From an uncultured Thiotrichales bacterium (GTDB lineage Bacteria; Pseudomonadota; Gammaproteobacteria; GCA-2400775): DNA of 64,000 nucleotides. Shown here piece after piece: positions 2,021 to 59,979 of this stretch. The notes under the pieces were generated by a model. That model was not told where the DNA came from, did not search any database, and was given only the letters and a program-made list of their open reading frames with translations. Where the stretch lies: the NCBI GenBank assembly GCA_964617475.1, contig CAZTYM010000001.1:100085-164084 (forward strand), written 5' to 3'. The position numbers were made by a program, and so were the translations under genes. How positions within the stretch are numbered: position 1 is the first letter of the stretch; each line of letters begins with the position of its first letter.

Positions 2021-3781
2021 TTATTTGTCTGAATCTATGACTGCGATTTGACAGCGGTTTCTGCCAAGCCGTTTAGCTTCGTATAAAGCGTCGTCGGCAC
2101 GAGAAAATACCTTATCAGGTGAGTCATTTTCACCGAACTCGGAGATACCGGCAGAAAGTGTTACAGGTATGGGTTTACCTTTGACTTCAAAATTACTGGA
2201 CTCAACTTGTTTTCGAATATTATCCGCGATAGTTTTTGCTGCCTTGCTGTCTGCGCCGGGTAACAACATGACAAATTCTTCGCCACCGTATCTTGCAACA
2301 AAATCAGTTTCGCGTAATTGTTTTTGCAAAATGCTCGCGATATATCGTAAAACATCATCACCTGTTAAGTGGCCATAGGTGTCGTTAATAATTTTAAAAT
2401 GATCCGCATCCCAAATAACCAGGCTAAGAGGTTTTCTATCGCGTTTCCATCTGGCGAATTCGACAAGAATACGTTCATCAAACGCCAGGCGATTAGGGGT
2501 TTTTGTCAGTGGATCAATGGTCGCTTGTATATGTTGTTCTTGAATTTGCTCACGCAATAAGCTTGCTTCTGATTCCATCGACTCAAGCTTGCTAGTCAGT
2601 TCACTCACTAATTTTTCAGACTCGGCATGCGCCTCTTTATGCTGTTGCTGGTGAGTACGCAAGTGTTCACGCAGACCATCTAACTGACTGAAGACGGATT
2701 TTCTTACTTGATCAATGTCATCGTGATTATTAATACTATGGTGAATACCTTCAACACTTTCATTAACGTTTTTATGAATAACATCGTTAGCCAGTTGTAC
2801 TTTTTCTCGAACCGATGATAGCCCAGAGATATTGAGCCCCATCACTTCAAGATGGTTAGTCAGTTCTGAGAGGAAGCTTTCAAGTTCATTTTTTTGTTCT
2901 TGAACTTGATTTTTAGCCTTCTCAATGAGATTGGATAGCAGTTTTAGTAGGCGCGGCCATTCATCAAGGGCTATCGGTTGTTCAAGTCGTTCGCGAATAT
3001 TAGCGACATCTACAGTTAGCGCTTCTGGAAAGTTTAGAAACTCAATGAGCAAGATAATCGCATCTGAAGCATCGTATGACTCCACTGAACCCGACTGAAT
3101 TTGTTGTTCTAAATCAGCCGCTGCTTTATTGAGTAGTTCGGAAAGTTGGATCGCCAGTTGTTTAAGTTTTTCTGGCTCTGCTTCCGCAGATTGCGCTTGT
3201 ATCGCCCGCAGCGTCGAGCTCGGAATTTCAGGAAAATCCAATCGACTGACGAAAACATTGATTAAATTTATATCATTTGCGGTGGATGTTTCGCCATGTG
3301 AATACGAAGTAGTAGTATCAGCAGCTTGATTACCGACCATATTGCCGATGTCAGTAACAATTTTCTCTAATTCTTTTTGATTAAGTTCTTGGCTAAGCTG
3401 TGATTTAAGCTGCTTAGCTTGTTGGCGAATGCTATCAATATTTTCTAGTTGGTCAGAGAGCTTTAAAAGCACCTTTGTCGGTGTTAACTGGTGCTCGGTT
3501 TCCTTGCTCAGCTGCATCAAAGTACCCGGCATACTCGCCGTCACTTCTTTCAACATGCGAATATCAACGTGTTTACCCATTGATTTACGCAAATTTGACA
3601 AACGTTCGTCTAAAACAGGGTGAACACCGTTGGCAGCGATTGTCAGTCGCCGAATGGTCATCCGTAACAGCTCTTCGGATTCAATCCATTCGCGCTCTTT
3701 TCGTCTCAGGTCATCTTGTGCCTGATTGAATTTAAGCTTCCAGTTCTCTTCACTGGTGCTCTTTTTTGACCGATTCAGCAT
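2021..3781 (-). CDS. Diguanylate cyclase (GGDEF domain) with long N-terminal coiled-coil region
   Basis: C-terminal RYGGEEF...GGEEFVMLLPG GGDEF signature. The roughly 400-aa N-terminus is highly helical and charged, with no TM segment. Confidence 0.85.
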   Translation of the reverse strand: MLNRSKKSTSEENWKLKFNQAQDDLRRKEREWIESEELLRMTIRRLTIAANGVHPVLDERLSNLRKSMGKHVDIRMLKEVTASMPGTLMQLSKETEHQLTPTKVLLKLSDQLENIDSIRQQAKQLKSQLSQELNQKELEKIVTDIGNMVGNQAADTTTSYSHGETSTANDINLINVFVSRLDFPEIPSSTLRAIQAQSAEAEPEKLKQLAIQLSELLNKAAADLEQQIQSGSVESYDASDAIILLIEFLNFPEALTVDVANIRERLEQPIALDEWPRLLKLLSNLIEKAKNQVQEQKNELESFLSELTNHLEVMGLNISGLSSVREKVQLANDVIHKNVNESVEGIHHSINNHDDIDQVRKSVFSQLDGLREHLRTHQQQHKEAHAESEKLVSELTSKLESMESEASLLREQIQEQHIQATIDPLTKTPNRLAFDERILVEFARWKRDRKPLSLVIWDADHFKIINDTYGHLTGDDVLRYIASILQKQLRETDFVARYGGEEFVMLLPGADSKAAKTIADNIRKQVESSNFEVKGKPIPVTLSAGISEFGENDSPDKVFSRADDALYEAKRLGRNRCQIAVIDSDK

Positions 3782-7338: not shown

Positions 7339-8437
7339 ATGATCGAAATTAATCTCATCTCACGTCGTATCAAAGATATGCAGGATCGCAGCAACGCTCT
7401 AAGGGGGTATCTTTGACTATGAGCAAAAGCACGAGAGATTAATCGAGGTCAGTCGAGAATTAGAGCAACCCGAAATCTGGAATGATGCCGAGCGAGCCCA
7501 GGCACTGGGTAAAGAGCGTTCGCAGCTTGAGCAAGTTGTTAACACCCTCGGAACTCTGGGCAGTACCTTAGATGACAGTAAGGAGCTCCTAGAGCTTGCC
7601 GCCGAAGAAGATGACCAAGAATCGGTAGATACCGTCGAAGCGGATTTAGATGAACTGGAAAACCAGCTTGCCGCCTTAGAATTTCGCCGCATGTTCTCAG
7701 GCGAAATGGACCCTAACAATTGCTACCTTGATATTCAATCAGGTTCAGGTGGTACCGAAGCGCAAGACTGGGCAGAAATGTTATTGCGTATGTATTTGCG
7801 TTGGGGTGAGCGCAGCGAATTTAAAACTGAACTAATTGAAGTTTCACCGGGTGATGTTGCGGGGATTAAACAAGCGACTATTCAGTTTACGGGGGAGTAT
7901 GCCTTTGGCTGGTTGCGCACTGAAACCGGCGTGCATCGTTTAGTGCGTAAGTCACCTTTTGATTCCGGTAACCGCCGTCATACATCGTTTGCTGCCGTGT
8001 TTGTTTCACCGGAAATTGATGATGACGTTGATATAGAAATCAATCCCGCCGATTTACGTATTGATACCTACCGTGCCAGTGGAGCCGGTGGACAGCATGT
8101 AAATAAAACCGAGTCCGCCATTCGTATTACGCATATGCCGACCAATGTTGTGGTGCAATGTCAAAACGATAGATCACAACATAAAAACAAAGCTACAGCG
8201 ATGAAACTGCTCAAAGCGAAGTTGTATGAGCTAGAAATACAAAAACGTTCAGCCGATCAGCAAGCCGTAGAAGACAGCAAGGCCGATATCGGCTGGGGTA
8301 GTCAAATACGCTCTTATGTTTTAGATCAGTCACGTATCAAAGATCTACGCACCAGCGTAGAAACCGGAAACACCCAAGCCGTCTTAGACGGTGACTTAAA
8401 CCAATTTATCGAAGCCAGCTTAAAAAGCGGACTCTAA
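7339..8437 (+). CDS. prfB: Peptide chain release factor 2, with programmed +1 frameshift at codon 26
   Basis: Frame 1 reads [25 protein letters not shown] then TGA at 7414-7416. The +1 frame continues DYEQKHERL...[16 protein letters not shown] (SPF/GGQ RF2 motifs). An internal SD-like AGGGGG lies 3 nt upstream of CUU UGA C, the classic RF2 autoregulatory site. Confidence 0.9.
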
Positions 8438-8453
8438 CCATCAGGATAAGCCC

Positions 8454-9938
8454 ATGTCTGAATTAGACGAAAACGAACAAATTACCCAACGTAAAGAAAA
8501 GCTGGCAGAAATGCGCCAGTCAGGCCAAGCCTATCCTAATGATGTACGCCGTGATGCTTTGGCGGGTGATTTGTTGGAGGCGTATAACGAGTTAGACAAA
8601 GAAGCCCTAGAAGAAAAGGCTATTGAAGTTTCCGTAGCAGGGCGCATGATGACCCGCCGTGTCATGGGTAAAGCCAGTTTTGCTCATCTACAAGACATGA
8701 CCGGCCAGATTCAGTGTTTTGTCCAAAAACAAGCTTTGCCAGAAGGTGCGTATGACGATTTTAAAAAATGGGATATTGGAGATATTATCGCAGGTAAAGG
8801 CGTTGTTTTTAAAACCAAAACAGGTGAATTGTCTATAAAGCTATCTGAGTTGCGTTTAATTACTAAATCACTACGCCCATTGCCGGAAAAATTCCATGGC
8901 TTGGCAGATCAAGAAACGCGTTATCGTCAGCGTTATGTTGATTTGATTATGAATGAATCATCACGCGATGTATTTCGAGTACGCAGTGCTACGGTGCAAT
9001 TCATTCGTAACTTCTTAAACGACAAACGTTTTATCGAAGTTGAAACACCGATGATGCAAGTGATTCCGGGTGGTGCCACCGCTCGTCCATTTGAAACCCA
9101 CCATAATGCCTTGGATATGGGCTTATATTTACGTATCGCGCCGGAGCTATATCTCAAACGTTTAGTCGTTGGTGGTATGGAAAAAGTTTTCGAGATAAAC
9201 CGTAACTTCCGTAACGAGGGTTTATCAACCAGACATAATCCAGAATTCACCATGCTCGAATTCTACCAAGCCTATGCGGACTACCATGACCTAATGGATA
9301 TCACCGAAGAAATGCTGCGCGGTTTAGCCGAAAGCGTATTAGGTAAAACCATCATCGACTACCAAGGTGAGCAATACGACTTTGGTAAACCATTCGAGCG
9401 TATGACGGTTAAAGAATCCATCTTAAAACTTAATAATGATATCAGCGCAGAACAACTAGAAAGCCTTGAATCCGCACGGGCAATTTGTGAGCGTTTAAAA
9501 ATCAAAATCAAAGACTCATACGGTTTGGGCAAACTACAAATCGAGATCTTTGAAAAAACCGTTGAGTCAAATTTAAAACACCCAACTTTTATTACCGAAT
9601 ACCCAGTCGAAGTCTCACCACTCGCTCGTCGTTCAGAAACCAATGATTTCGTTACCGACCGGTTTGAATTTTTCATTGGCGGTCGTGAACTTGCAAACGG
9701 CTTCTCAGAGTTAAATGATCCAGAAGACCAGGCCGAACGTTTCCAACAACAAGTGGAAGAAAAAGACGCCGGTGATGATGAAGCTATGCACTACGATGCC
9801 GACTATATTCGTGCATTAGAATACGGTATGCCCCCGACAGCAGGCGAGGGTATCGGTATAGACCGTTTAGTCATGTTATTAACCGACTCACCATCCATCC
9901 GCGATGTATTACTCTTCCCCCATATGCGACCCGAATAA
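8454..9938 (+). CDS. lysS: Lysyl-tRNA synthetase
   Basis: Class II aaRS motifs and LysS-like sequence throughout ([24 protein letters not shown]); 494 aa. Confidence 0.9.
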
Positions 9939-10556
9939 GGTGCGATTAGCACCTTATGAGATAGTGCCTGTGGTACGCCCTGAGTGATTAGCGATAGCTA
10001 ATCACGAAGAAGTGGTCTTGGGCCGCGACCCGAATAAATAATTTAAGGGGTCAGCACCTCGTTTTCTATTTTTAGAAAACGGATCTGTAACCCCTAAAAC
10101 TGTCATCTCTATAACTTCGTTCACCCTGAGCTTGTCGAAGGGTAAGCCAGTCCAAGGGTAAACTAGCCTCATCACATCATCCCTGCGCCCTGAGTAGTTT
10201 ACGATAGTAAACTACGAGGAAGTCGTCTTGGGCGGCGCCCTGAATAAGATCCGACTAGGATCTTATGAAGAAGTGGTCCTGGGCCGCGCCCTGAATAAGT
10301 AGTCCCTTATCCAGTTTAAACGCACCCCTCGACACGCTCGGGGTGAACGCAGAGTAGGCAAGGTAAGTCTTAAAGTGTAAGAATTGTAAATATTCCGTTC
10401 ACCCAATGCCCTGAATAAGATGCGTTAAGCATCTTATGAAGAAGTACCCTTGCGGTAAGCTTGTCGAAGGGTGAGCTTATCAAAGGCTGATCCCTGAATA
10501 GTTTGCGACTATTATGTTACGACGAAGTCAACTTAGACAACGACCGGAATAAGTAA
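9939..10556. repeat. Array of REP/BIME-like hairpin repeat units in the lysS downstream intergenic region
   Basis: Conserved flanks GCGCCCTGA(A/G)TA(A)G ... GA(A/G)GAAGTGGTC(C/T)TGGGC(C/G)GCG recur at about 9980, 10183, 10227, 10288, 10408 and 10492. Each encloses a different perfect palindrome (for example GTGATTAGC-GAT-AGCTAATCAC, GTAGTTTAC-GAT-AGTAAACTAC, AAGATGC-GTT-AAGCATCTT). An AGCTTGTCGAAG motif and the palindrome CGTTTTCTA-TTT-TAGAAAACG are also present. Confidence 0.7.
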
Positions 10557-10940
10557 ATGAATATTTTTAAAAAGACATCGTTTTGGGTGATTGTGTCAAT
10601 CATTGGTTTTGGGTTTATCGCTTTTTCGCTGATACCAAAACCTATCGATACGAATTTAGACAATATTGGTAATGGCCAGAAATCAGTGGTGTTTGTTTAC
10701 GACGCCAATTTAACGGTCAGTAACCAGCAAACGGTTGAGATAAATAAAGCACGCGAAACCCTCGGTGAGAGAGTTAATTTCTTATTGGCCAAACCAGGAG
10801 ACCCTAGGGCTGAATCATTTTTAAAACATCATCTGGCTTTATCTACGGATTTGTTGTTTTTTAATGAGTCAGGGGAGTTAGTTGATCGGCAGGTGGCCTT
10901 ATTGAGTGCTGAGGAGTTGATTGAGTCGTTGTCTGATTAA
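10557..10940 (+). CDS. Hypothetical membrane-anchored protein
   Basis: 127-aa ORF with an N-terminal TM helix and no recognisable catalytic motif. Embedded between repeat clusters. Confidence 0.45.
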   Translation: MNIFKKTSFWVIVSIIGFGFIAFSLIPKPIDTNLDNIGNGQKSVVFVYDANLTVSNQQTVEINKARETLGERVNFLLAKPGDPRAESFLKHHLALSTDLLFFNESGELVDRQVALLSAEELIESLSD

Positions 10941-10974
10941 GTCTGCTTGCTGACTCAGTTTCTTTCTTATCGTC

Positions 10975-11300
10975 ATTCCTGCGCCCTGAATGATTAGAGT
11001 GAGCTATTCATGAAAAAGTGCCCTCGGGGTACGAAAGCGGGAATCCAGATATAAAAATCTTTCGCCGTACCCTGAATAAGATGCGATCAGCATCTTATGA
11101 GGAAGTGCCCTTGGGACGAGCCCAGAATAATTTGCGTATATATCCGTTCGTGCTGAGCTTGTCGAAGCACATACTATCGAGGTTTTATGGCCATATGAAA
11201 ACCAGCCAATCACCTCTCAAAATCTATACATTTTTTTCGCCACTTCCTTCGGAAGTTTGCGCGACTTACTTTTTTCATAAAAAGTAAGCAAAAAACTAGC
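10975..11300. repeat. Second cluster of the same hairpin-repeat family plus additional palindromes
   Basis: GCGCCCTGAATGATTAG..., TACCCTGAATAAG-ATGCGATCAGCATCTTATGAGGAAGTGCCCTTGGGACGAGCCCAGAATAA, a third copy of AGCTTGTCGAAG, and the palindromes ACTTCC-TTC-GGAAGT and CTTACTTTTT-TCAT-AAAAAGTAAG. Confidence 0.6.
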
Positions 11301-11609
11301 TCCTAATCAGCCGGCCTTTGGCTTCCCTCGCTCGCACTGGAAATACAAGGGCCTGCGGAACTCGCTTTACTAAAGTAAAGCTCAAACAGTCCTCGGCCTT
11401 ATCGCGTATTTCAAGCACTTGCTCGGCAGCTGATAAGTCGCGGACAAAATGTTTGTGTGTTAACTAAATTAACGGCGGATTGCGTAATGGGTCTATATAC
11501 TTGCTTCAATAATATAAATATTTTATATCCGTTAAGCGAGTTAAAAATTACATTTCTTTTCGGTATTTGGAGCTGTGAATAACAGGATGATAATAGGAGG
11601 CAACCCAGT

Positions 11610-12032
11610 ATGGATGCGCTAGGTGTTCCCATAGTGCTTTTAGCTACTATATGGGGAGCATTCGCCGTTGTATTTAAGGCATTAGAGCTTATGACTGACC
11701 GTAGAGACCTGTTCCATGGATTTAAACTCCATGGAAGTACGGATACAACGTGCGATATTGATATTAAGCTTCATCACTTTTTGGACTGGTTACCCTTGTG
11801 GTTTGGCGTCATGATTTTTTTGATCATTTTTTCAGTAATAATATTTTTTGTACCAGACTTCCTTGATATAGATGATGAAACTTACCAATCAAAAATAGAG
11901 TTTATTAGAAATATTTGCTCAATCGCGGCTGCTATTCCACTGTTTGGTGCAATAGCATTCTTATTTGGTGGTTTATATGATATTGCCATATTTTATAAGG
12001 CACATAAACATAGGCGCAGGTCGAAATCATAG
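11610..12032 (+). CDS. Hypothetical small membrane protein (2-3 TM) in low-GC island
   Basis: Strong SD TAGGAGG 8 nt upstream of the ATG. Hydrophobic helices; AT-rich codon usage unlike the flanking genes; no known family recognised. Confidence 0.5.
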   Translation: MDALGVPIVLLATIWGAFAVVFKALELMTDRRDLFHGFKLHGSTDTTCDIDIKLHHFLDWLPLWFGVMIFLIIFSVIIFFVPDFLDIDDETYQSKIEFIRNICSIAAAIPLFGAIAFLFGGLYDIAIFYKAHKHRRRSKS

Positions 12033-23494: not shown

Positions 23495-25141
23495 TTAAAG
23501 TGCGAAGCGTTTGGTTAAATCATTAAGGTTTTCGTTAATTTGATTTAACTCAGAGCACAGCTGTTTGGCTTCACGAGCACCTTCTGCAACCGCAGTTGAT
23601 ACGTTATCAATAGCTTTAATACTATCAGTCAATTCTTGCGTAACTTCTGTTTGTTGCTCGGTAGAAGATGCAATCTGATTAGTTGTTTCAGAAATACTGG
23701 TTACTGAGCGAGCAATTTCGGCGATGGATTTGCCTGCCATTTTCGCTTCTTCAACACTCTTCGCCATACCGGTTTGACTACGTTCCATTGAATCCACTGC
23801 TTGTTCTGAACGTGTTTGCAGACTAGTAATGGTTTTATTAATCTCATCAATAGAGTTTTGAGTGCGTTGCGCTAAAGTGCGAACCTCATCCGCAACCACG
23901 GCAAAACCACGACCTTGCTCACCTGCACGAGCCGCCTCAATAGCAGCATTCAGTGCCAGCAAGTTAGTTTGTTCAGCAATAGATCGTATGACTTCGGTTA
24001 CGCTGCTAATGCTTGCGCTATCTTCACGTAAGGCATTGATAACTTGTCCTGCTTCTTCCATGGCTTGGCTAACATCTTCAATTTGTTGCACAGCTTTACG
24101 AACAACTTGATCACCTTTTTGTGCCTCAAGCGATGCGTCACCAGCAACTTGTGCGGTAGAACTGGTATTACCAGCCACTTCCTGGAAGCTTGATGCCATT
24201 TCGTTCATAGATTCAGAAACTCTGTTGACATCAGCCTGCTGGCTAGCCATTCTTTCTGCTGAAGAACTAGACTGCTCGCTGAGACGTTGAGAAGCAGTAT
24301 CCAGCGTTTTAACACTTTGGCTAATTTCACGTATCAGAGTGCTAACACCTTCTTGCATGTCATGGAAATATCTTGCTGATGATCCTAATTCGTCTTTATC
24401 GAATTTGGACATATCAATATTTTGGCTCAAGTCACCATTACCCATTCTTTGCATTTGGGCGTTGAGTACTGCAAGCGGCGTATTAATTTTACGTAGCAAC
24501 ATAAAACCACCGAAAATGGTCAGTCCAATCAATACTACGCAAATACCCAGCAAAGATGTTGTAATGCCTGCAAATGAAGCTTTAGCTTCTGATCTCAACT
24601 GAACAGACTTGTTTTGTAAGTCAGCTTGGAATTTTTCTACTGGCGCAATCATAGCGTTAAATGGCGCAAGCATTGGGCCAAGAATAGTTTCACGTGCTTT
24701 TTCGATACGATCAGTATCGATAAGATGAATATAATGTTCTTGTGTTTTCACATAGTCAGCAAAGTTTTTGCGGAAGGTTGTGATAAATGCCTTGTCAGGT
24801 GCACTTTCTACTGCTTGGTCGAATTCACCTAATACTTTTAATGTTAATTCGCGGTTTTCTTCAATGATAGGATGAATGACTTTATGTTCTTCTTTGTTTT
24901 CGGTTAAGCCATAGTCCAGTGCAAAACGGCGATAAGTTAATGTGTAATGACGAAGTTCAGATACTTTCGTTAATAAATCCACATTCTTCTCAACGATATG
25001 GTCCACATCACTCTCGACCTGTGTCAAGCTGACATAGACATAAACGCTCAACGCGATAACCAGTGCGGCAACCGTTGAAAAACTTAAAACGATAAAATTT
25101 TTAATTGATAAATTCTTTAACATTATGCGCTCCAAAAGCAC
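23495..25141 (-). CDS. Methyl-accepting chemotaxis protein
   Basis: N-terminal TM, ligand-binding region, second TM, HAMP, and a highly conserved MCP signalling domain ([28 protein letters not shown]). Confidence 0.85.
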
Positions 25142-50173: not shown

Positions 50174-52264
50174 GTGAATCCAATACGAAAAGAAATTCAA
50201 TACGGTAAGCATAAACTAGTGCTAGAAACAGGCGAGATTGCTCGCCAAAGTAGCGCTGCAATTCTGGTGAGTATGAATGATACCCAAGTGCTCGTTACCG
50301 CTGTCGGTAAAAAAGAAGCTGACGAAGGGAGAGACTTTTTCCCCTTAACGGTTAATTATCAAGAACGTACTTACTCAGCAGGTAAAATTCCAGGTGGATT
50401 TTTTAAACGCGAAGGTCGTCCAACAGAAAAAGAAACACTGACTTCACGTTTGATTGATCGCCCTATACGTCCTCTTTTTCCAAAAGGTTTTACTAACGAA
50501 GTACAGGTTATTGCTACGGTTGTTTCGTTAGACAAAGAAATCGATCCTGATATTCCTGCCATCATTGGTGCATCAGCAGCCTTAGCGGTTTCAGGAATGC
50601 CGTTTGCTGGCCCAATTGGTGCCGCACGTGTTGGCTACAAGGACGGTAACTATTTACTTAACCCTGATATCTCTGAGCTGGCTAGCTCTGAACTCGACTT
50701 GGTTATTTCAGGTACGGAAGATGCCGTGTTGATGGTTGAGTCTGAAGCCGATATGTTGTCAGAAGAGGTCATGTTAGGTGCCGTATTGTTTGGTCATGAA
50801 CAGCAGCAAGCCGTGATCACCGCAATCAATGAATTTGTAGCCGAAGTTGGTAACGAGGCGTGGAATTGGCAAGCACCTGCTTCAGATGATGACTTAAAAG
50901 CCGCTGTAGCTGCGGTTTGCGCCGGCGAAATTGAAGAAGCCTATGCCATTAGTGAAAAAACGGCGAGACAAGATCGCTTAGGTGAGATTCGCAGTGAAGT
51001 GGCAGCGCAATTTGATGCCGATGATAGCAATGCCTGGACGGGTGATGATGCCAAAGGCGCGATTGCAAAAATTGAAAAAGCCCTGGTGCGCGATAAAATT
51101 TTAAGTGGTGCGCCACGGATTGACGGACGAGATACTAAATCAGTTAGGCCAATTAGCGTTCGTGTCGGCGTATTAACCCGTGTACATGGTTCAGCCTTGT
51201 TTACACGTGGTGAAACACAATCACTAGTAGTAACCACTTTGGGAACTGGCAGAGATGCGCAGGTAATCGATGCGATCGAAGGTGAACGTAAAGAACCCTT
51301 TATGTTTCATTACAACTTCCCACCATATTGTGTTGGTGAGACTGGCATGGTTGGTTCACCTAAACGACGTGAGATCGGTCATGGTCGTTTAGCCAAACGT
51401 GGTGTCGCAGCCGTAATGCCAGATATGGATGAGTATCCTTACGTTGTTCGTGTGGTTTCTGAAATTACCGAATCTAACGGTTCAAGTTCAATGGCATCTG
51501 TTTGCGGTGCTAGCTTATCGATGATGGATGCCGGTGTGCCACTGAAAGCACCTGTTGCTGGTATCGCAATGGGTTTGATTAAAGAAGATGATCGTTTCTC
51601 GGTTTTATCTGACATCTTAGGTGATGAAGATCATTTAGGAGACATGGACTTTAAAGTAGCCGGTACCGAAAATGGTGTCACTGCCTTACAAATGGATATA
51701 AAAATTCAGGGTATTACCCGCGAGATTATGGAAACTGCATTGGCGCAAGCTCGTGATGGCCGTTTACATATTCTTGGTGAGATGGCGAAAGTTATTGATA
51801 CTTCACGCGAAGAGCTATCAATGTATGCGCCACGTATCCTTACTATGAATGTGCATCCAGATAAGATTCGTGATGTTATTGGTAAAGGCGGTGTGACTAT
51901 CCGTTCTATTACTGAAGAGACAGGCGCAACGGTTGATATCGATGACGATGGTGTTGTACGTATTGCTTCACCTGATGGCGAAGCTGCAGCAGAAGCAAGA
52001 CGTCGTATTGAAGAAATCACCGCTGATGTAGAAGTAGGTAACATTTACGAGGGTCGTGTAGCAAAGATTATGGACTTCGGTGCCTTTGTTACTGTGTTGC
52101 CTGGTAAAGACGGTTTGGTCCATATCTCGCAGATTTCACAAGAGCGCGTTGAAAATGTCAGCGACAAACTTTCAGAAGGCGAAACCGTGAAGGTAAAAGT
52201 ATTGGAGATTGACAAGCAAGGTCGCATTCGTTTGAGTATGAAGGCGATCGAAGAAAACGCTTAA
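50174..52264 (+). CDS. pnp: Polynucleotide phosphorylase
   Basis: GTG start. Two RNase PH domains plus KH and S1 domains; near-identical to E. coli PNPase. Confidence 0.95.
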
Positions 52265-52292
52265 TCTGCTTACTGTTAAAAACCTAATAAAA

Positions 52293-52331
52293 AGCGGCAA
52301 TGACTGGGCAGGTCATTGCCGCTTTTTTTTG
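52293..52331 (+). terminator. Rho-independent terminator after pnp
   Basis: AGCGGCAATGAC-TGGGCAG-GTCATTGCCGCT followed by TTTTTTTT. Confidence 0.7.
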
Positions 52332-52462
52332 TTTATGTACATTAAACTACAGTCATCCTTTTAACAAACAATGACTTAGCTAATAATCTTTAACATGGCC
52401 CATCAGCGGAATGCTTATTGCTGAAGCAATGGCATCTGTAAACATAATGAAGGGCCGTAACT

Positions 52463-53269
52463 ATGAAGCGATACTCACACTACCTAGGTGCAATTGGTAC
52501 CAGCTGTTTGGTGGTAGCCGTATTATGGGTTTTGCCAGAGGAAGTGAGCTTATTTCTCAATATTCCGGGATTGTTCCTAGTTATTGGCGGTACTATTATC
52601 GCGACCTGTGTTAGTCGACGTCGTCGGCACGTGGTAAGTGTATTACGCTCATTGCCCGCATTAGTTTTCAACAAGAAAAACCCTAGCAACTTAAACGCAA
52701 AGGTTGATCGTTTTTTGGGTACAGCAGAGAGTTATCGTCGTTCTCGCATACGCATGACAGAAGAGATGGCAGCGCGTATAGGTGATGGCTTTGCCCAAAG
52801 CGGTATTGCTTTAGTGGTGGATAGAGTTGAACCCGCTGAAATGAATAAAATTTTTCAGTGGCGTATAAATGCTATTGCCTCCGCCGAGCAAGCAAAAATT
52901 CAAGTAGTTAAAACCATGGCCAATTTTGCACCTGCCTTAGGTATGCTGGGAACGCTAGTCGCTATGGTACACATGCTTTATGGATTAGAAAGTGCTGATA
53001 TTAACGAAATTGGTCGTTCAATGGCGTTTGCTATGATTACCACACTATATGGAATTATTATTTCTAATCTTATTTGTAAACCTCTAGCCATTAAAATGGA
53101 GCAAGCACTACAACAAAAAATGCTCGTGCTTAATATGTGGGTAGAAGGCATTAATGGTATGGCTGCAAAACGTCATCCGCAATTAATTAGAGAGGCAATG
53201 GACACATTCCTCATGCAAAACGAACAGTATGAAGCTGAAGTGCCGGCATTGGTATTAGCAACAAACTAA
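52463..53269 (+). CDS. motA: MotA/PomA-family stator protein (proton/sodium channel subunit A)
   Basis: Four-TM topology with a large cytoplasmic loop. APALGMLGTLVAMVHML and AMITTLYGIIISNLICKPLA align with PomA/MotA TM3-TM4 motifs. Confidence 0.75.
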   Translation: MKRYSHYLGAIGTSCLVVAVLWVLPEEVSLFLNIPGLFLVIGGTIIATCVSRRRRHVVSVLRSLPALVFNKKNPSNLNAKVDRFLGTAESYRRSRIRMTEEMAARIGDGFAQSGIALVVDRVEPAEMNKIFQWRINAIASAEQAKIQVVKTMANFAPALGMLGTLVAMVHMLYGLESADINEIGRSMAFAMITTLYGIIISNLICKPLAIKMEQALQQKMLVLNMWVEGINGMAAKRHPQLIREAMDTFLMQNEQYEAEVPALVLATN

Positions 53270-53291
53270 CGGTCTTTTGGGAGTTTACTTA

Positions 53292-54416
53292 ATGTCGGTA
53301 ACTAACAATAAAAATATGTCATGGGTTTCTATGGAAAAGCCAGAGCCTATTGCAGCGCGTAATAGTTCCTCTGATTCAGATGGCTGGGTCGTAAGTTATG
53401 CTGATATCTTATTATTGTTACTGACTTTTTTCATTTTGCTGTTTGCATTTTCGCGCGTTGGAGGCACCGACATGCGTGAAACTGAATCAGGACAGTCGGA
53501 AACATTATCTGAAGCAAAGCAAGAGCGAACAACTCAAACTGCTAGATTAGAATACGAGCTTGAACAAGTTGCTCCAGAATCTTTATTGGAAGCACCGTCC
53601 ACCGATAAACCTATCCGCCAGCTAATGGTTGTTGCCAGTAGCACAGGCACTAATTTTGTTGAGCAAGTGAAAGAAACTTCTGACCGAACTAGTGATGAGG
53701 AAAATAGCGAAGATATTGTTACTGGTCTAAATGTGGATGCTGAGACATTAGATCTTGCTGAGCAAGAAGAGAATTTAGACTTGGTCTATGAAATTGAGCA
53801 GGACATAAATAATAGCATTGCCTCAGAAGCAGACTTTTCTGAATCAGAAAATACTACTGCGCACATAATGCCTTATTCTATTGAAGCTGAGTACATCGAA
53901 GCTGAGCATATCGCAACTCACTTTCCCGAAGAAAATCACATTGCGCAACAGCATACCGTTGGTTTAACGATTGACGAGCAACTAGCTAGACTCAGCGCAG
54001 GTTTAACCTCAGATGAAATTGAACTTACCAGCGGCTATCAGTCTATAAATATAGAACTCAATAACAAAGTATTATTTTCATTAGGCGAAGCGAATTTATT
54101 AGCAGAAGGGCAGCAGTTTTTGAACGAAATCGTCGACATCATGCAAGGTAATGAATATTATGCCTCGATAGAAGGGCATACTGATAATTCGCCTATTTCT
54201 ACAGCGCGATTTCCCTCTAATTGGGAGCTGTCTTCAGCGCGTGCAAACTCTGTTGCACGTTATCTTATTGAGCAAGGTATTAATGCTCAGCGCTTGCGCA
54301 CAATTGGTTATGCGGATACTAAGCCGAAAGTAGATAATAATTCCGAAGAAGGTCGGGCCGTTAATCGACGTGTATCGATCATGTTTCATTTTGATGAAGA
54401 TACGCCCGTCACTTAA
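53292..54416 (+). CDS. motB: MotB/PomB-family stator protein with OmpA-like peptidoglycan-binding domain and long acidic linker
   Basis: VVSYADILLLLLTFFILLFAF plug/TM region. C-terminal OmpA-like domain (IEGHTDNSPIS...NWELSSARANSVARYL...NRRVSI). About 150-aa acidic, low-complexity linker. GGGAG SD before the ATG at 53292. Confidence 0.75.
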   Translation: MSVTNNKNMSWVSMEKPEPIAARNSSSDSDGWVVSYADILLLLLTFFILLFAFSRVGGTDMRETESGQSETLSEAKQERTTQTARLEYELEQVAPESLLEAPSTDKPIRQLMVVASSTGTNFVEQVKETSDRTSDEENSEDIVTGLNVDAETLDLAEQEENLDLVYEIEQDINNSIASEADFSESENTTAHIMPYSIEAEYIEAEHIATHFPEENHIAQQHTVGLTIDEQLARLSAGLTSDEIELTSGYQSINIELNNKVLFSLGEANLLAEGQQFLNEIVDIMQGNEYYASIEGHTDNSPISTARFPSNWELSSARANSVARYLIEQGINAQRLRTIGYADTKPKVDNNSEEGRAVNRRVSIMFHFDEDTPVT

Positions 54417-54419
54417 TGC

Positions 54420-55031
54420 ATGAGTATCATGAATAATTTCCTAAGTAGATATCTATTTGTCACCAGTACGTTCGTGCTGCTGCTGATGTCTCAGTTCGCC
54501 ATGGCTGGTATTGACGAAGGGATTGCAGCGTACAATAACGGCGATCACGCAACTGCCTATGATGAGTTTTTGCCCGTCGCAAAAGCTGGCGACAAAAAAG
54601 CGCAACTCTTATTAGGCTTAATGTATGACAATGGGCTTGGTGTTAAGAAAGACCACGACAGTGCTGCACAGTGGTACCGTAGAGCGGCGGAACAAGGACA
54701 ACCACGTGCACAATTCAACCTTGGTCTAATGTACGAAAGTGGTGAAGGCATCCAAGCTGACGAAGAACTCGCGCTCTCCTGGATTCGTAAATCCGCGGAA
54801 CAAGGTTATGCCGAAGCGCAAGATATGTTGGGCCGCTTTTACGAACATGGTAAGTACCTAGATAAAGATCTGGTCAAATCTCACATTTGGTATAGCCTGG
54901 CGGCTGGAAAGGGCGCGCGCGAATCTATAGCACCGCGAGAAAGAGTTGCAGCGCAGCTTAGCGAAGCACAACTCGCTGAGTCAGAAAAAATGGTTAACGA
55001 ATGGCAAAACGTCTTTCAACACGTGTTTTAG
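54420..55031 (+). CDS. Secreted Sel1-repeat protein (MotX-like candidate)
   Basis: Signal peptide and about four Sel1-like repeats (AQLLLGLMYDNGLGVKKD, AQFNLGLMYESGEGIQAD, AQDMLGRFYEHGKYLDKD). Vibrio MotX is a Sel1-repeat protein of similar size. Confidence 0.5.
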   Translation: MSIMNNFLSRYLFVTSTFVLLLMSQFAMAGIDEGIAAYNNGDHATAYDEFLPVAKAGDKKAQLLLGLMYDNGLGVKKDHDSAAQWYRRAAEQGQPRAQFNLGLMYESGEGIQADEELALSWIRKSAEQGYAEAQDMLGRFYEHGKYLDKDLVKSHIWYSLAAGKGARESIAPRERVAAQLSEAQLAESEKMVNEWQNVFQHVF

Positions 55032-55107: not shown

Positions 55108-55428
55108 GTGATGGAAGATATAAATCCACAAGAACTCAAAGACTTGCTTGAGCAAGCAAACCCACCCAAAGTTATCGATGTCCGTCAAGACTGGGAATAC
55201 GAAAAATGCAGCATCGATGGTTCGCTGCATATTCCCATGGATCAAATAGAAGACCACGTAGACCAACTAGACGTAGAAGAAAACATTGTTGTCGTCTGCC
55301 ACCACGGCATGCGCAGCGCGCAAGTTGCCCAATACCTCATTCAAAGTGGTTTCTCTAATATCTCAAATCTTGCTGGTGGTATTGATGCCTGGGCCAGAGA
55401 AATCGACCCCGCGATGGAACAGTATTAA
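55108..55428 (+). CDS. Single-domain rhodanese (sulfurtransferase), GlpE-like
   Basis: Active-site loop VVVCHHGMRSAQ; 106 aa. Confidence 0.75.
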   Translation: MMEDINPQELKDLLEQANPPKVIDVRQDWEYEKCSIDGSLHIPMDQIEDHVDQLDVEENIVVVCHHGMRSAQVAQYLIQSGFSNISNLAGGIDAWAREIDPAMEQY

Positions 55429-55864
55429 CTACTTACAAATATACTTATCCTTAGAATTTTACTTCTTTACTGTGATGGTAGAAGCAAAATAAATGATAGG
55501 GTTAGCAACTTGCTCAAGATAGTCGCTGACCCTGTAATTCTGAATGCCAAATCATGTGTTTTACCTCTTCTTTTTGTCTTTTTTCCTGATTTCTAAGTAG
55601 TTGATCTATCCTGTCGATACTATAAGGGTATATTACTTTTGTTGACTTAGCGTTGCTTTCGCTATTTGGTTTATTTTAGAAAAATCAAGGCGTTACAGGT
55701 ATATTTCACTTGCGCTTTTTGATGAAAGTAGTTAGTTTTATATTTACCATTGATTTGCATGCAGTTCAGGTCTTTGTTAGCGGAAGGCTCGATAATTATC
55801 CTTCTTAAAGTTGTGTGATTAAGCTGGGTAAACTGTTGCAATATGGGGAGGAAGGACAAGCAAG

Positions 55865-56794
55865 ATGTCACCTAATGCTATATTAATTAATAGTACTGGA
55901 ATCGAGAAGCGGGATATTACTATGGATTCGAACTTGGAATCGGTCATACTGGAACCTGATAGTGCGTTCGACAACCGCTTAGGGCAGATTCTCCTCAAGG
56001 AAGGGAAAATCAAGGAAAAAGATGTTAAACGCATTATTACCTATGCGCAAAAGAAAAAGATTCGTTTTGGTGAGGCCGCAATTAAACTCAGGGCTGCGTC
56101 TCGCAATGATGTTGAGCGCGCTATTGCCGCGCATTTTGACTATCCTTATCTGCTTAAAAACGAGGGTAATTTAAGCAAGGAATTGGTATCTGCTTACCGT
56201 CCTTTCACTACGAAAGCGGAAGATATTCGAAACCTAAGAAGTCAGTTAATTTCCAAGTGGTTTAATGATGAGCATAACTGCCTAGCGATTGTTAGTCCAA
56301 ATTCGGGCTCTGGCCGCAGTTATCTTGCCGCTAATCTTGCTATCGCTTTTTCTCAACTTGGGCATAAAACTTTGCTTGTTGATGCCGATTTACAAGATGC
56401 ACGTCAGCATAAAATTTTTGGACTAGATAATTCCATAGGTTTGTCTACGTTGCTTGTTGGTAATGATGATCTGGATTTACCAATCAGAAGTATAGAATTG
56501 ATAAATCGATTATATGTGATGACGGCTGGCGCAGCGCCGCCAAACCCTTCAGAACTATTATCGCGGGAGAAATTTAAACAACTCAAGAGTGTTGTTTCAA
56601 GTCGGTTTGACGTGGTGATTTTTGATACCTCACCTGGTGAGTTAGGTAATGCCGCTGAAGCCGTAGCTGAGGCTTGCGGAGGAGCGCTGATGGTATTGGT
56701 GCCTAATCGTACTCATCACACTGATGCTTCAACCTTTGTGGATAGAGTGAATGATAGAGCCACTGTAGTGGGTGCTGTGTTCAATAAACCGTAG
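55865..56794 (+). CDS. MshEN/T2SSE-N-like domain fused to BY-kinase (CapB/Wzc-type) P-loop ATPase domain with Walker A lysine replaced by Arg
   Basis: N-terminal RLGQILLKEGKIKEKDVKRIITYAQ and RFGEAAIKLRAASRNDVERAIAAHF resemble the tandem 24-aa MshEN/GspE-N motifs. The C-terminus aligns with BY-kinase catalytic domains (SPNSGSGRSYLAANLA vs SxxPGEGKT...NLA; LLVDADLQ...HKIFGL; PPNPSELL; VVIFDTSP). There is no C-terminal tyrosine cluster. Confidence 0.6.
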   Translation: MSPNAILINSTGIEKRDITMDSNLESVILEPDSAFDNRLGQILLKEGKIKEKDVKRIITYAQKKKIRFGEAAIKLRAASRNDVERAIAAHFDYPYLLKNEGNLSKELVSAYRPFTTKAEDIRNLRSQLISKWFNDEHNCLAIVSPNSGSGRSYLAANLAIAFSQLGHKTLLVDADLQDARQHKIFGLDNSIGLSTLLVGNDDLDLPIRSIELINRLYVMTAGAAPPNPSELLSREKFKQLKSVVSSRFDVVIFDTSPGELGNAAEAVAEACGGALMVLVPNRTHHTDASTFVDRVNDRATVVGAVFNKP

Positions 56795-57546: not shown

Positions 57547-59091
57547 TTAATTCATTCTTATTAAAAATTTTAACTTACTCGGCAAAATTTGCTGAATCAG
57601 CACTTTTTCGTCGTGTTTAAGTGGCAGTTTGACTAAAATAATAGCTAGAAATAATGTGCAGGCGGCTATTGCTGCAATAATTTCAATTAAACCTAGTGCT
57701 TTAAGCGCAAAACCGGCGGCTATGGATAATATAGTAATTGCTAATATAAGGAAGCTTAGCCTCCAATCAAACGTAAAAATATAGTCATATCGTCGCATAT
57801 ACACAGTAATAATAATTACTGATAAAACAAGGCCTGCAATATTTGCGATGGCAATAGACCATAGACCTAAGTGCGGAATAAGCGGAATCGCCAAGAATAT
57901 GGATGCTGATAGGGTTAGATTGCTAATAGTAAATATGCGAGTGTGTTCAACTGCTTTTACTAAAAGGTCTAGCACCACGTTAATGCTGGAAATTACTATT
58001 ACGGTATAGAAACCTAAAAATAGTAGAGAAGCATTTGTATATTTACCCGATGATATCCAATTAAATAGCGTCTCGCCGGCTACGGAAAAAAGGATAAAAA
58101 GCGGTACCAGTACGAGCAAATTTAAACGGAACAGGAAATTTCCCATAGAGACGATATGACTAAAATCATTATCTATGCTGTAGCGTGACATAAACTTCGG
58201 TCTTATCAAACCAACAAAAAGGCGAATTGGTGCAAACTTTCTTATATATTCTATTAATCTGTCTATCACACCGAATAAGGCAATGAGCTCTGTTGGCATA
58301 AAGTAAGAAACAAAGAGTCGATTCGCAGGACTACCGTAGGAAATGGAAGTAAGGTTTTGCATGTAACTCCACGCGCCGAATCTAAGATAACGATTTCGAT
58401 TTGTCATTAAGACACTGCTATCACCTAGGTGCTTTTCATGATCGTTTCTTCTGCGCACTATCAGCCAGCAAAGCAAAATAACTAGAGTTGCCGCTTCCGA
58501 AATGCCCTCAATAATGACAAAATTAGCTAGTGATAGTTGATCAATCGACATCGCAAATACCACTAGAACCAGTTTAATAAGACCACCAATAGCGGCACTA
58601 TATTGTGCTTCTTTCTGCCATAATAGGTTTTCCAATGCCATCACAACAAAAGTGGCGTTTGCACGAAAAAATCCGACTGCGAAATACCACGGTACTATCC
58701 ACAGCCAGTCTTGAAGTTTAAATGCGTTTGCTATTACTTCAATAAATGGAAGCAGTACTGCTATAAGCACAAGGTAAAGAACAGCCCTAAGCGCGATGCT
58801 ATACATCAGCAATTGGTACATTGGCTTGTTATTACTGTGGGTGCGCAGTTCTGGCACGAATCGATGTAATACAGAATTAACACCAAAAGAAGACACAAGC
58901 CCCATAATTCGAGTAAGGGCGTGCAGCGATGTATAGACCGCAAATTCGGCAATAGACAATGCACGAATAATTAGCAGTAAAACGACGAAGGTAGACCCAG
59001 CAGCAAATCCTTTCCCCAACACAAAATGAATAAAGCTCTTTCTAAATGCTTTGATACCATAGTGTTTTGATCCAGATAGAGGCATGCTCAC
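57547..59091 (-). CDS. Polysaccharide biosynthesis/flippase protein (Wzx-like, MOP superfamily)
   Basis: 514 aa with roughly 12-14 TM helices and the N-terminal pattern typical of PST/Wzx proteins. Confidence 0.65.
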   Translation of the reverse strand: MSMPLSGSKHYGIKAFRKSFIHFVLGKGFAAGSTFVVLLLIIRALSIAEFAVYTSLHALTRIMGLVSSFGVNSVLHRFVPELRTHSNNKPMYQLLMYSIALRAVLYLVLIAVLLPFIEVIANAFKLQDWLWIVPWYFAVGFFRANATFVVMALENLLWQKEAQYSAAIGGLIKLVLVVFAMSIDQLSLANFVIIEGISEAATLVILLCWLIVRRRNDHEKHLGDSSVLMTNRNRYLRFGAWSYMQNLTSISYGSPANRLFVSYFMPTELIALFGVIDRLIEYIRKFAPIRLFVGLIRPKFMSRYSIDNDFSHIVSMGNFLFRLNLLVLVPLFILFSVAGETLFNWISSGKYTNASLLFLGFYTVIVISSINVVLDLLVKAVEHTRIFTISNLTLSASIFLAIPLIPHLGLWSIAIANIAGLVLSVIIITVYMRRYDYIFTFDWRLSFLILAITILSIAAGFALKALGLIEIIAAIAACTLFLAIILVKLPLKHDEKVLIQQILPSKLKFLIRMN

Positions 59092-59142: not shown

Positions 59143-59979
59143 TTAAAGCCAATGCTTCAATGGTCGGTCAATTAGCTTCTCTAAACGCTTAATTTCGTTT
59201 TCAAAGCTTTCTTTCAATTGCTGCTTGGTAGCTTCTTTCATGGGTGGAATGACGGTATTGGAACTAGTGCGGTTTAAGTTACGGTATATTTTTTGAAAAC
59301 CTAGTTTACCTGTAGTATTCCATAACGATCCTAAACCGATTTTACGAATGATCGAACGGACACCATTCTTTATTGCTTCTGCTCCTGCAGACCGGTTTAC
59401 GTAGCTTTCGTTGGAGCGCTGAGTCAGCGCTGCGGACTGGTGATTGGGGTCAATTTCTAAGAACTGATAAACGCGTTTAGAAACGGCCACTGGGTCCTTA
59501 ATAACATCATCAAAAAGTAGAACGAGTAACTGCTCTTTTGGAAAATGCACTAGCCAGTTTTCTAAGTGCGTTGCGTAAAGCCCTTGTTCTATATAAGAGG
59601 GGTTGTTCTTCATTCCATATTCAAAACTCAAATCTTCGCCCTGAATGTGACCAGTGCGGACTTCATGTTGATGATTTGAGATGGCTCTTTGTTCAGGGTT
59701 TCTCAGTAGGACGATAAGCTTGACTTCTGGGTTGTATTGTTTGATTCGGGTGGGTACGGATACGCCGTGAAAATAAGAGGGTGATATTTCGCCGATTATT
59801 TTTTTGTTGGTGTCTATGAAATTACGTTCATACCACTCAAAGCCAAAGTCATAATAGTTGGAAAAAAAATCCAGTTCCTTTTTTTCGCTGACATATGCTT
59901 CAGGGTGGTCTGCAAGAATGTCATAAACCCAGGTTGAGGCACATTTTTGTGCTCCGATGCCAATGAACGTTGGCTTCAT
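59143..59979 (-). CDS. Sulfotransferase-family protein
   Basis: 5'-PSB-like IGIGAQKCASTW and 3'-PB-like LIVLLRNPEQRAISNHQH motifs. Confidence 0.7.
   Translation of the reverse strand: MKPTFIGIGAQKCASTWVYDILADHPEAYVSEKKELDFFSNYYDFGFEWYERNFIDTNKKIIGEISPSYFHGVSVPTRIKQYNPEVKLIVLLRNPEQRAISNHQHEVRTGHIQGEDLSFEYGMKNNPSYIEQGLYATHLENWLVHFPKEQLLVLLFDDVIKDPVAVSKRVYQFLEIDPNHQSAALTQRSNESYVNRSAGAEAIKNGVRSIIRKIGLGSLWNTTGKLGFQKIYRNLNRTSSNTVIPPMKEATKQQLKESFENEIKRLEKLIDRPLKHWL

Follow-up and report, generated by a model that had tools for sequence, protein, structure and literature searches.

Flagellar stators pair an A subunit with a B subunit, and the described systems closest to the locus reported here are PomA/PomB of Vibrio (8BRD, 8BRI, 8ZYV), MotP/MotS of Bacillus and MotC/MotD of Pseudomonas. 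The Vibrio stator combines an A subunit of ~250-270 amino acids (aa), with four transmembrane (TM) helices and a four-helix cytoplasmic domain, with a B subunit that carries a TM Asp, a plug, a linker and an OmpA-like domain, and its two genes have a stand-alone arrangement; motCD sit in a che/flagellar cluster. Among periplasmic repeat proteins, MotX (NF047621; 8Z5N, 9YFG) is a secreted Sel1-repeat protein of ~200 aa with an intramolecular disulfide, and PflA/PflB of Campylobacter, MotK of Cereibacter and FlcA of spirochaetes are helical-repeat proteins that are sometimes encoded beside motA/motB. Here we analyze a stator-like gene pair that is followed by a Sel1-repeat gene in a stretch of 64,000 nucleotides (hereafter the window) from an uncultured Thiotrichales bacterium, a marine gammaproteobacterium that resembles sulfur oxidisers (GenBank assembly GCA_964617475.1, contig CAZTYM010000001.1, positions 100,085 to 164,084). 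Unless another locus is named, positions are those of the window; the analysis also reached into 10-kb flanks.

The locus lies on the + strand and consists of a motA-like gene (52463-53269; 268 aa), a motB-like gene (53292-54416; 374 aa) and a Sel1 gene (54420-55031; 203 aa). A sequence-only reading had described a three-gene cluster downstream of pnp, and all three open reading frames were found at the positions it gave, tightly packed and with strong domain matches. The motB-like frame opens at a TTG (53277), and gene callers on identical contigs chose the in-frame ATG at 53292, which yields the 374-aa product; the Sel1 start lies 3 nt past the motB stop (TAA TGC ATG). The domain matches and the conservation of the gene block in related genomes far exceed what chance would give. 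Like Vibrio PomA/PomB, the pair has a four-TM A subunit with a four-helix cytoplasmic domain and all key residues kept, a B subunit of the same architecture, and a stand-alone two-gene arrangement. It differs from the Vibrio stator in sharing only ~25% identity with it, in a MotB linker that is ~60 aa longer and strongly acidic, and in the additional Sel1 gene, with no MotX or MotY identified in the window. Among curated NCBIfam models, MotP is the best match for the A subunit and MotD for the B subunit, although, unlike motCD, the window genes lie outside a che/flagellar cluster.

A likely flagellar-type stator pair

The motA product matches Pfam MotA_ExbB (E = 1e-20), and its full-length matches among solved structures are flagellar stators only, namely Clostridium MotA, Vibrio PomA, Paenibacillus MotA1, Aquifex MotA and Bacillus MotA. 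The alignment with PomA spans the full length of the protein. It places the FliG-contact residues R88/K89 and E96/E97 of PomA at R92/R93 and E100/E101 of the window MotA, the conserved prolines P151 and P199 at P157 and P207, and the Na+-site residues T158 and T185/T186 at T164 and T193/T194. Six of these residues (R92, E100, P157, P207, T164 and T194) are invariant in 22 MotA relatives. The FliG-contact Arg/Glu residues and the two prolines expected of a flagellar A subunit are thus all in place.

Traits that have been described as specific to flagellar stators are at least four cytoplasmic helices, an unbroken TM3, a plug and linker in the B subunit, and an OmpA-type domain (PMC12505986). 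In an AlphaFold2 model of the window MotA (mean pLDDT 83), four short cytoplasmic helices (54-69, 75-92, 96-104 and 109-119) lie between TM2 and TM3, and TM3 itself is one continuous helix (124-173). The protein therefore has the four-helix cytoplasmic domain and unbroken TM3 of flagellar A subunits, and shows none of the non-flagellar features: a condensed domain of 2-3 helices, a kinked TM3 or a ZorA tail. A Foldseek search of the PDB with this model returned flagellar MotA/PomA proteins as all of its top 23 matches, with PomA (8BRD) as the best; TM-scores to Vibrio PomA were 0.75-0.86, compared with 0.3-0.47 (11-17% identity) for ExbB/TolQ.

The motB product contains MotB_plug (39.4 bits; cut-off 24) and OmpA (74.4 bits; cut-off 27.2) domains. 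From its N-terminus, it is composed of a tail, a TM helix with the channel Asp, a plug, an acidic linker and an OmpA-like peptidoglycan-binding domain, which is the architecture of a flagellar B subunit. The motif SYAD-ILLLL holds the channel Asp, D38, which is invariant in the ortholog alignment. The C-terminal domain matches the periplasmic domains of MotB, PomB and MotS with E-values of 1e-19 to 1e-26 (1.6e-22 for MotS). The hallmark TM and plug motifs and the PomAB-like character that the sequence-only reading had ascribed to the pair are thus upheld by the PomA alignment, the retained key residues and the fold search, and the Asp that it had proposed looking for in the MotB TM helix is present. 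Our combined findings indicate that the pair is most likely a flagellar-type stator of the PomAB/MotPS/MotCD class ("TGI4" of PMC12505986).

The linker between plug and OmpA-like domain comprises residues 63-240 (178 aa) and contains 41 Asp and Glu residues (23%) against 8 Lys and Arg, for a net charge of -33 and a pI of 4.05. In the ortholog alignment the TM/plug region and the C-terminal domain are conserved, and the linker is unalignable and variable in length. It varies even between strains: at locus L002 (10831-11940) MotB is 369 aa long, compared with 374 aa in the window, with a MotA that is 100% identical. An unusually long acidic linker of about 150 aa had been claimed for this protein. 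The acidic linker is real, and somewhat longer than stated, but it is not unusual, since MotB homologs in the family span about 234 to 452 aa. We conclude that it is a disordered, hypervariable tether that is not special within the family.

Probable coupling to Na+

Three threonines of PomA form the Na+ pocket and are conserved in all Na+ stators, and two of them, T158 and T185, give way to alanine in H+ stators (Hu et al., PMC10374538). The corresponding residues of the window MotA, T164, T193 and T194, are all threonines, so that the Na+-type residues proposed as a check in the sequence-only reading were found. Furthermore, the window MotB has a Leu at Asp+11, as do PomB and MotS. Judging from these residues, the stator is probably Na+-coupled.

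By analogy with solved stators, five MotA subunits would rotate around a MotB dimer in a 5:2 assembly. Ions would pass via Asp38 of MotB and the pocket formed by Thr164, Thr193 and Thr194 of MotA, which has the composition of a Na+ site, and the R92/E100 face of MotA would push on FliG. The plug would hold the channel closed until the OmpA-like domain, on its acidic disordered tether, binds peptidoglycan at the motor.

Distribution of the stator family

Proteins identical to those of the window occur on many metagenome contigs and in one NCBI metagenome-assembled genome (MAG). The closest named relative genome by MotA is an "uncultured Thiotrichales" MAG (79% identity), and a relative at 67% identity has RuBisCO and carboxysome genes nearby. 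Family members at 35-46% identity were found in Thiohalobacter, Thiogranum, Halothiobacillus, Guyparkeria, Methylococcaceae, Alcaligenaceae and Kangiellaceae MAGs. Across ~80 homologous loci only the motA-motB pair itself is common, the other neighbours being housekeeping genes or clade-specific. The window clade and its nearer relatives (40-46% identity) retain the PomA-like residue set, including the FliG-contact Arg/Glu.

A distinct arrangement is found in Halothiobacillaceae/Guyparkeria, where motAB is directly followed by a gene for a protein of ~850 aa with PAS, GGDEF and EAL domains (loci L048, L050, L058, L062, L067, L074-L076, L078, L081, L082 and others; about 8800-12000). At the FliG-contact Arg pair the MotA proteins of this branch have Phe/Gln, and the branch may be non-flagellar or linked to cyclic-di-GMP (c-di-GMP).

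An ordinary Sel1 protein, not an ortholog of MotX

The third gene had been read as encoding a MotX-like protein, which would make the locus a cluster of A, B and X genes. Part of this description holds: the product is a protein of ~200 aa with Sel1 repeats (three Pfam Sel1 matches, 98 bits) and features of a secreted protein, as is MotX. Its N-terminus is a hydrophobic, signal-peptide-like segment ending AMA/G, and four orthologs have similar segments that end IIA/G, ANA/G, IHA/G and SQA/A. A structural model (mean pLDDT 93.6) shows ten helices, among them four helix-pair repeats and, at the C-terminus, a capping helix.

The identification with MotX, however, failed at the level of family, sequence and fold. 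The three genes do adjoin, but the product of the third scores 48.3 bits on the NCBIfam MotX model NF047621, which has a cut-off of 330. As controls, Sel1 proteins encoded in unrelated contexts scored 48.3, 61.8, 44.9 and 40.8 bits on the same model, and orthologs of the window protein 36.6 and 43.9 bits. Similarity to MotX is thus no greater than that of any Sel1 protein, with unrelated ones scoring the same or higher, and the lack of MotX-specific conservation, which the sequence-only reading had itself named as grounds for abandoning its proposal, is what we observed. The best NCBIfam match is MerG (100 bits). Against PDB sequences, generic Sel1 proteins score 130-290 bits and MotX chains 30 bits. 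Closest in sequence to the window protein are Legionella LpnE and LceB, E. coli c5321, Sel1 proteins of Oxalobacter, H. pylori HcpC and MerG-like proteins, whose chains lie at 149-290 bits. By fold it comes nearest to LpnE, the Oxalobacter proteins, LceB, c5321 and HcpC, with TM-scores of 0.69-0.76 for most and 30-41% identity (except HcpC, 21%), whereas MotX (8Z5N_C) ranks 29th, with a TM-score of 0.58 and 20% identity. In addition, and unlike MotX, the window protein has no cysteine. True MotX orthologs are readily found by BLAST, at E-values of 2e-46 to 1e-113 in other genera and 2e-46 to 2e-63 in Shewanella or Colwellia (PMC6375700).

Sel1 proteins of ~200 aa that are 43-49% identical to that of the window occur in unrelated contexts, such as beside sarcosine oxidase genes at locus L096; of the controls above that scored 48.3 and 61.8 bits, both ~200 aa, one (P0205) adjoins sarcosine oxidase genes. 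What sets the window gene apart from these generic proteins is its translational adjacency to motB, a position conserved in one clade. We conclude that the product is an ordinary Sel1 protein and not a MotX ortholog.

The Sel1 gene is linked to motAB in one clade and decays there

Intact Sel1 orthologs (58-74% identity) are confined to the close clade. The order pnp-motA-motB-sel1-rhodanese is found in the window and in L015 and L095, the contexts examined, and the synteny of Sel1 with motAB in these close relatives is by descent, which makes it a single evolutionary event. At the ~75 motAB loci of the family that are more distant, no Sel1 gene lies next to the pair.

Within the clade, the gene has decayed in two or three sister lineages. 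In L011 and L012, from two independent Joint Genome Institute (JGI) metagenomes, a 50-bp tandem repeat (L011 11981-12125; 2.9 copies, 98% matches) directly past motB stands where the Sel1 gene had its 5' half, leaving a remnant open reading frame of 100 aa without a signal peptide. The Sel1 gene of L016 carries stop codons and frameshifts, and a truncated Sel1 call of 151 aa (P0136) resembles the L016 remnant. Both motA and motB are intact in L011/L012 and in L016 despite this decay. The Sel1 protein is therefore not retained wherever the stator is retained, as would be expected of a MotX, and its loss from sister lineages with intact motAB argues that the stator does not require it.

We suggest that an ordinary periplasmic Sel1 gene became attached to the stator operon in one narrow Thiotrichales-like clade. 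Its product is somewhat more probably a passenger; it may instead be an optional periplasmic stator adaptor, a reading that we hold to be plausible but the lesser of the two, and for which the operon structure speaks. A precedent for adaptors exists in TPR-type stator scaffolds, which bind MotB and recruit stators (PMC10954123; PMC7990780). PflA/PflB, MotK and FlcA resemble the window protein in being periplasmic helical-repeat proteins, sometimes encoded beside the stator genes. They differ from it in being much larger, in having no detectable homology to it beyond the repeat class, and in that their role in motility has been shown, whereas the window protein is known from its sequence and is dispensable in relatives. 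In the literature we found no published case of a stator operon with a fused Sel1 gene.

Weighing the alternatives

Taken as a whole, the interpretation of the locus as a flagellar-type stator operon with a dispensable Sel1 protein that is not MotX is, in our judgment, reasonably probable. Several observations weigh against it. First, both subunits score under every NCBIfam flagellar cut-off. Scores and cut-offs for the MotA-like protein were 134.6 and 394 for MotP, 121.5 and 341 for PomA, 108.2 and 340 for MotA, and 107 and 237 for PRK09109; for the MotB-like protein they were 183.4 and 283 for MotD (over the full length), 137.2 and 259 for the MotB family, and 127.6 and 264 for MotS. These results place the pair in an unnamed, uncharacterised subfamily of its class. 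Second, MotA of Clostridium sporogenes also has all three of the threonines, which are thus necessary for Na+ use but not proof of it. Third, no flagellar genes were found in the 64-kb window, in its 10-kb flanks or beside any homologous locus; the sole hint of motility in the window is a methyl-accepting chemotaxis receptor (4HB_MCP_1, HAMP, MCPsignal) at 23495-25141 on the minus strand. Fourth, the more distant MotA members, in Alcaligenaceae and Kangiellaceae MAGs, have Phe, Met or Ala in place of R92, which suggests that parts of the wider family may not be flagellar. Alcaligenaceae already have a canonical motAB, and Kangiellaceae are a family not known to be motile. Finally, the tight motB-sel1 junction is conserved in 4-5 lineages, which is compatible with a real functional link that we may have underrated.

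Some of these points would fit a non-flagellar, MotAB-like ion-driven motor, a possibility that the sequence-only reading had also raised; such a motor would energise another envelope process, and the Sel1 protein would be its partner in the periplasm. The locus stands alone, with a flagellar neighbour at 0 of the ~80 homologous loci and with scores below all flagellar equivalog cut-offs, and distant members of the family have lost R92. The occurrence of these distant members in Kangiellaceae MAGs, their PAS-GGDEF-EAL neighbour in Halothiobacillaceae, and, just downstream of the window pair, an exopolysaccharide locus that includes a c-di-GMP-type tyrosine kinase point in the same direction. 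Nonetheless, we consider such a motor unlikely here. It is normal for the pomAB/motAB operons of polar flagellates to stand alone, and the exopolysaccharide genes downstream lack conservation among relatives. The FliG-contact Arg/Glu residues are invariant in the window clade and in the relatives at 40-46% identity. ExbB/TolQ folds are poor matches, ZorA barely matches MotA, and all the traits that distinguish flagellar stators from generic ion transporters (PMC12505986) are present. These structural hallmarks disfavour a non-flagellar energiser.

Less probable still is the view, put forward in the sequence-only reading, that the Sel1 protein functions as an analogue of MotX and provides a T-ring-like scaffold in the periplasm, which would recruit and activate this Na+-type stator at a polar motor. 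The two proteins share size class, signal peptide and repeat type, and the Sel1 gene is kept in translational adjacency to motB in the window, L015, the P0124 lineage and L095. The stator carries a Na+-type signature, Na+ stators of Gammaproteobacteria correlate with MotX/MotY rings (PMC6375700), and unrelated TPR-type periplasmic proteins scaffold stators elsewhere, namely PflA/PflB in Campylobacterota and MotK in Cereibacter (PMC10954123). The generic level of MotX similarity argues against this view, as does the ease with which BLAST finds true MotX orthologs. So do the degraded Sel1 genes, P0136 and those beside intact motAB in L011/L012 and L016, and a linkage that arose once, in one clade. 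Moreover, the window contains no MotY-like OmpA protein; indeed, no second MotA, MotB, OmpA-like (MotY-like) or Sel1 gene was found in it. In a variant of this idea, the clade would have recruited an ordinary Sel1 protein as a new stator adaptor, a convergent reinvention of the MotX role that some lineages kept and others dropped; to this, too, we give little credence.

Two further candidates were rejected. A Zorya or other defence system is not indicated, as PADLOC ZorA matches MotA only at E = 0.003-0.008 over ~75 residues, and the strong ZorB matches to MotB (to E = 3.8e-21) arise mainly via the C-terminal OmpA-like region common to MotB-type proteins. Likewise, a SiiAB-like link to a giant adhesin was set aside, with no type I secretion genes seen and the large downstream neighbour not conserved.

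The transcription unit and its leader

A strong intrinsic terminator of pnp (52289-52327, + strand), a 17-pair stem followed by a T-run, lies between the end of pnp at 52264 and the stator genes, and its stem is kept with compensatory changes in 4 lineages. The first terminator-like site 3' of the Sel1 stop is at 55648-55664, past a gene for a single-domain, GlpE-like rhodanese (55108-55428, + strand; Pfam Rhodanese; 72 bits on the GlpE model, cut-off 102). The sole terminator-like site that the scan placed within the operon, at 54239-54260, falls inside the motB coding region. A terminator precedes motA and no such site lies between the Sel1 stop and the end of the rhodanese gene, so that motA-motB-sel1 forms its own transcription unit. 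The rhodanese gene is possibly co-transcribed with it; its downstream position is kept in L011, L015, L016 and L095, so that it is syntenic in every clade member.

Upstream of motA, a conserved leader or promoter block (52395-52456, + strand) has columns that are invariant in 4 lineages, between flanks that vary. It contains GGCCC (52397-52401), CGGAAT-N5-TTGCT (52407-52422), a hairpin ATTGCT-GA-AGCAAT (52417-52430) and a ribosome-binding site AAGGGC (52450-52455). In 5 lineages, among them L095 as the most divergent one, the motif CGGAA[T/C]-N5-TTGC sits 41-45 nt 5' of the ATG. In RNAalifold, GCCC of the leader pairs with GGGC of the ribosome-binding site, and the small hairpin also folds. 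CGGAAT-N5-TTGCT has the -24/-12 spacing of a sigma-54 promoter, with a weak -24 half and 3 mismatches to the consensus; sigma-54 matches with two mismatches or fewer occur in the window at chance frequency. As a lead, the leader may serve as a sigma-54 promoter, in the control of translation, or in both ways.

Other promoter classes gave no such candidate. A sigma-28 (FliA) promoter would tie the operon to the flagellar regulon, and no conserved match to one was found in the five lineages. There was likewise no conserved sigma-70 promoter, and a consensus scan upstream of motA revealed no sigma-70-type site. A structured RNA or riboswitch 5' of motA was also considered and rejected, with Rfam at E <= 1 giving chance matches only, far under the gathering scores.

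Neighbouring genes

Beyond the rhodanese gene lies a stand-alone EpsG-type tyrosine autokinase (55865-56794, + strand; TIGR03029, 276 bits, cut-off 314), whose N-terminus has a match to an MshE-related cyclic-di-GMP-binding domain (NF053729; 29 bits, cut-off 38). With this gene begins an exopolysaccharide-like locus that includes a multi-TM protein of 514 aa (57547-59091, minus strand) and a sulfotransferase (59143-59979, minus strand), and that is absent from the same position in L011 and L095.

Further downstream, a gene for a large secreted protein runs from 60574 to beyond 64000 (+ strand). By eye, its product contains FG-GAP/VCBS-like and repeated Calx-beta-like segments, and on near-identical contigs it was called at 1393, 1407 and 1471 aa, differences that suggest variation in repeat number. 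In L095, a gene called at 11,926 aa and having no Pfam match begins ~1.2 kb past the rhodanese gene (12266 onward).

Elsewhere in the window, a GGDEF protein with DGCcoil and GGDEF domains is encoded at 2021-3781 (minus strand). At 7339-8437 (+ strand), prfB shows the classic programmed +1 frameshift: ORF0 ends ...GGGGGTAT CTT TGA C at 7411-7417, followed by the +1 frame. It is because of this ordinary frameshift that gene callers give only a 243-aa product.

Implications

The locus is tidy and largely ordinary. The equal scores of generic Sel1 proteins on the MotX model, together with the loss of the Sel1 gene in sister lineages, mean that a secreted Sel1 protein of ~200 aa beside motB should not be annotated as MotX. 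Only should the Sel1 protein prove to bind and recruit the stator would the locus be of interest as an example of stator scaffolds that evolved convergently. The locus also illustrates how variable the MotB tether can be. If our interpretation of the pair is correct, it would add to the PomAB-type stators a subfamily that is uncharacterised and probably Na+-coupled, has no curated model to name it and is widespread in uncultured sulfur-oxidising and related Gammaproteobacteria.

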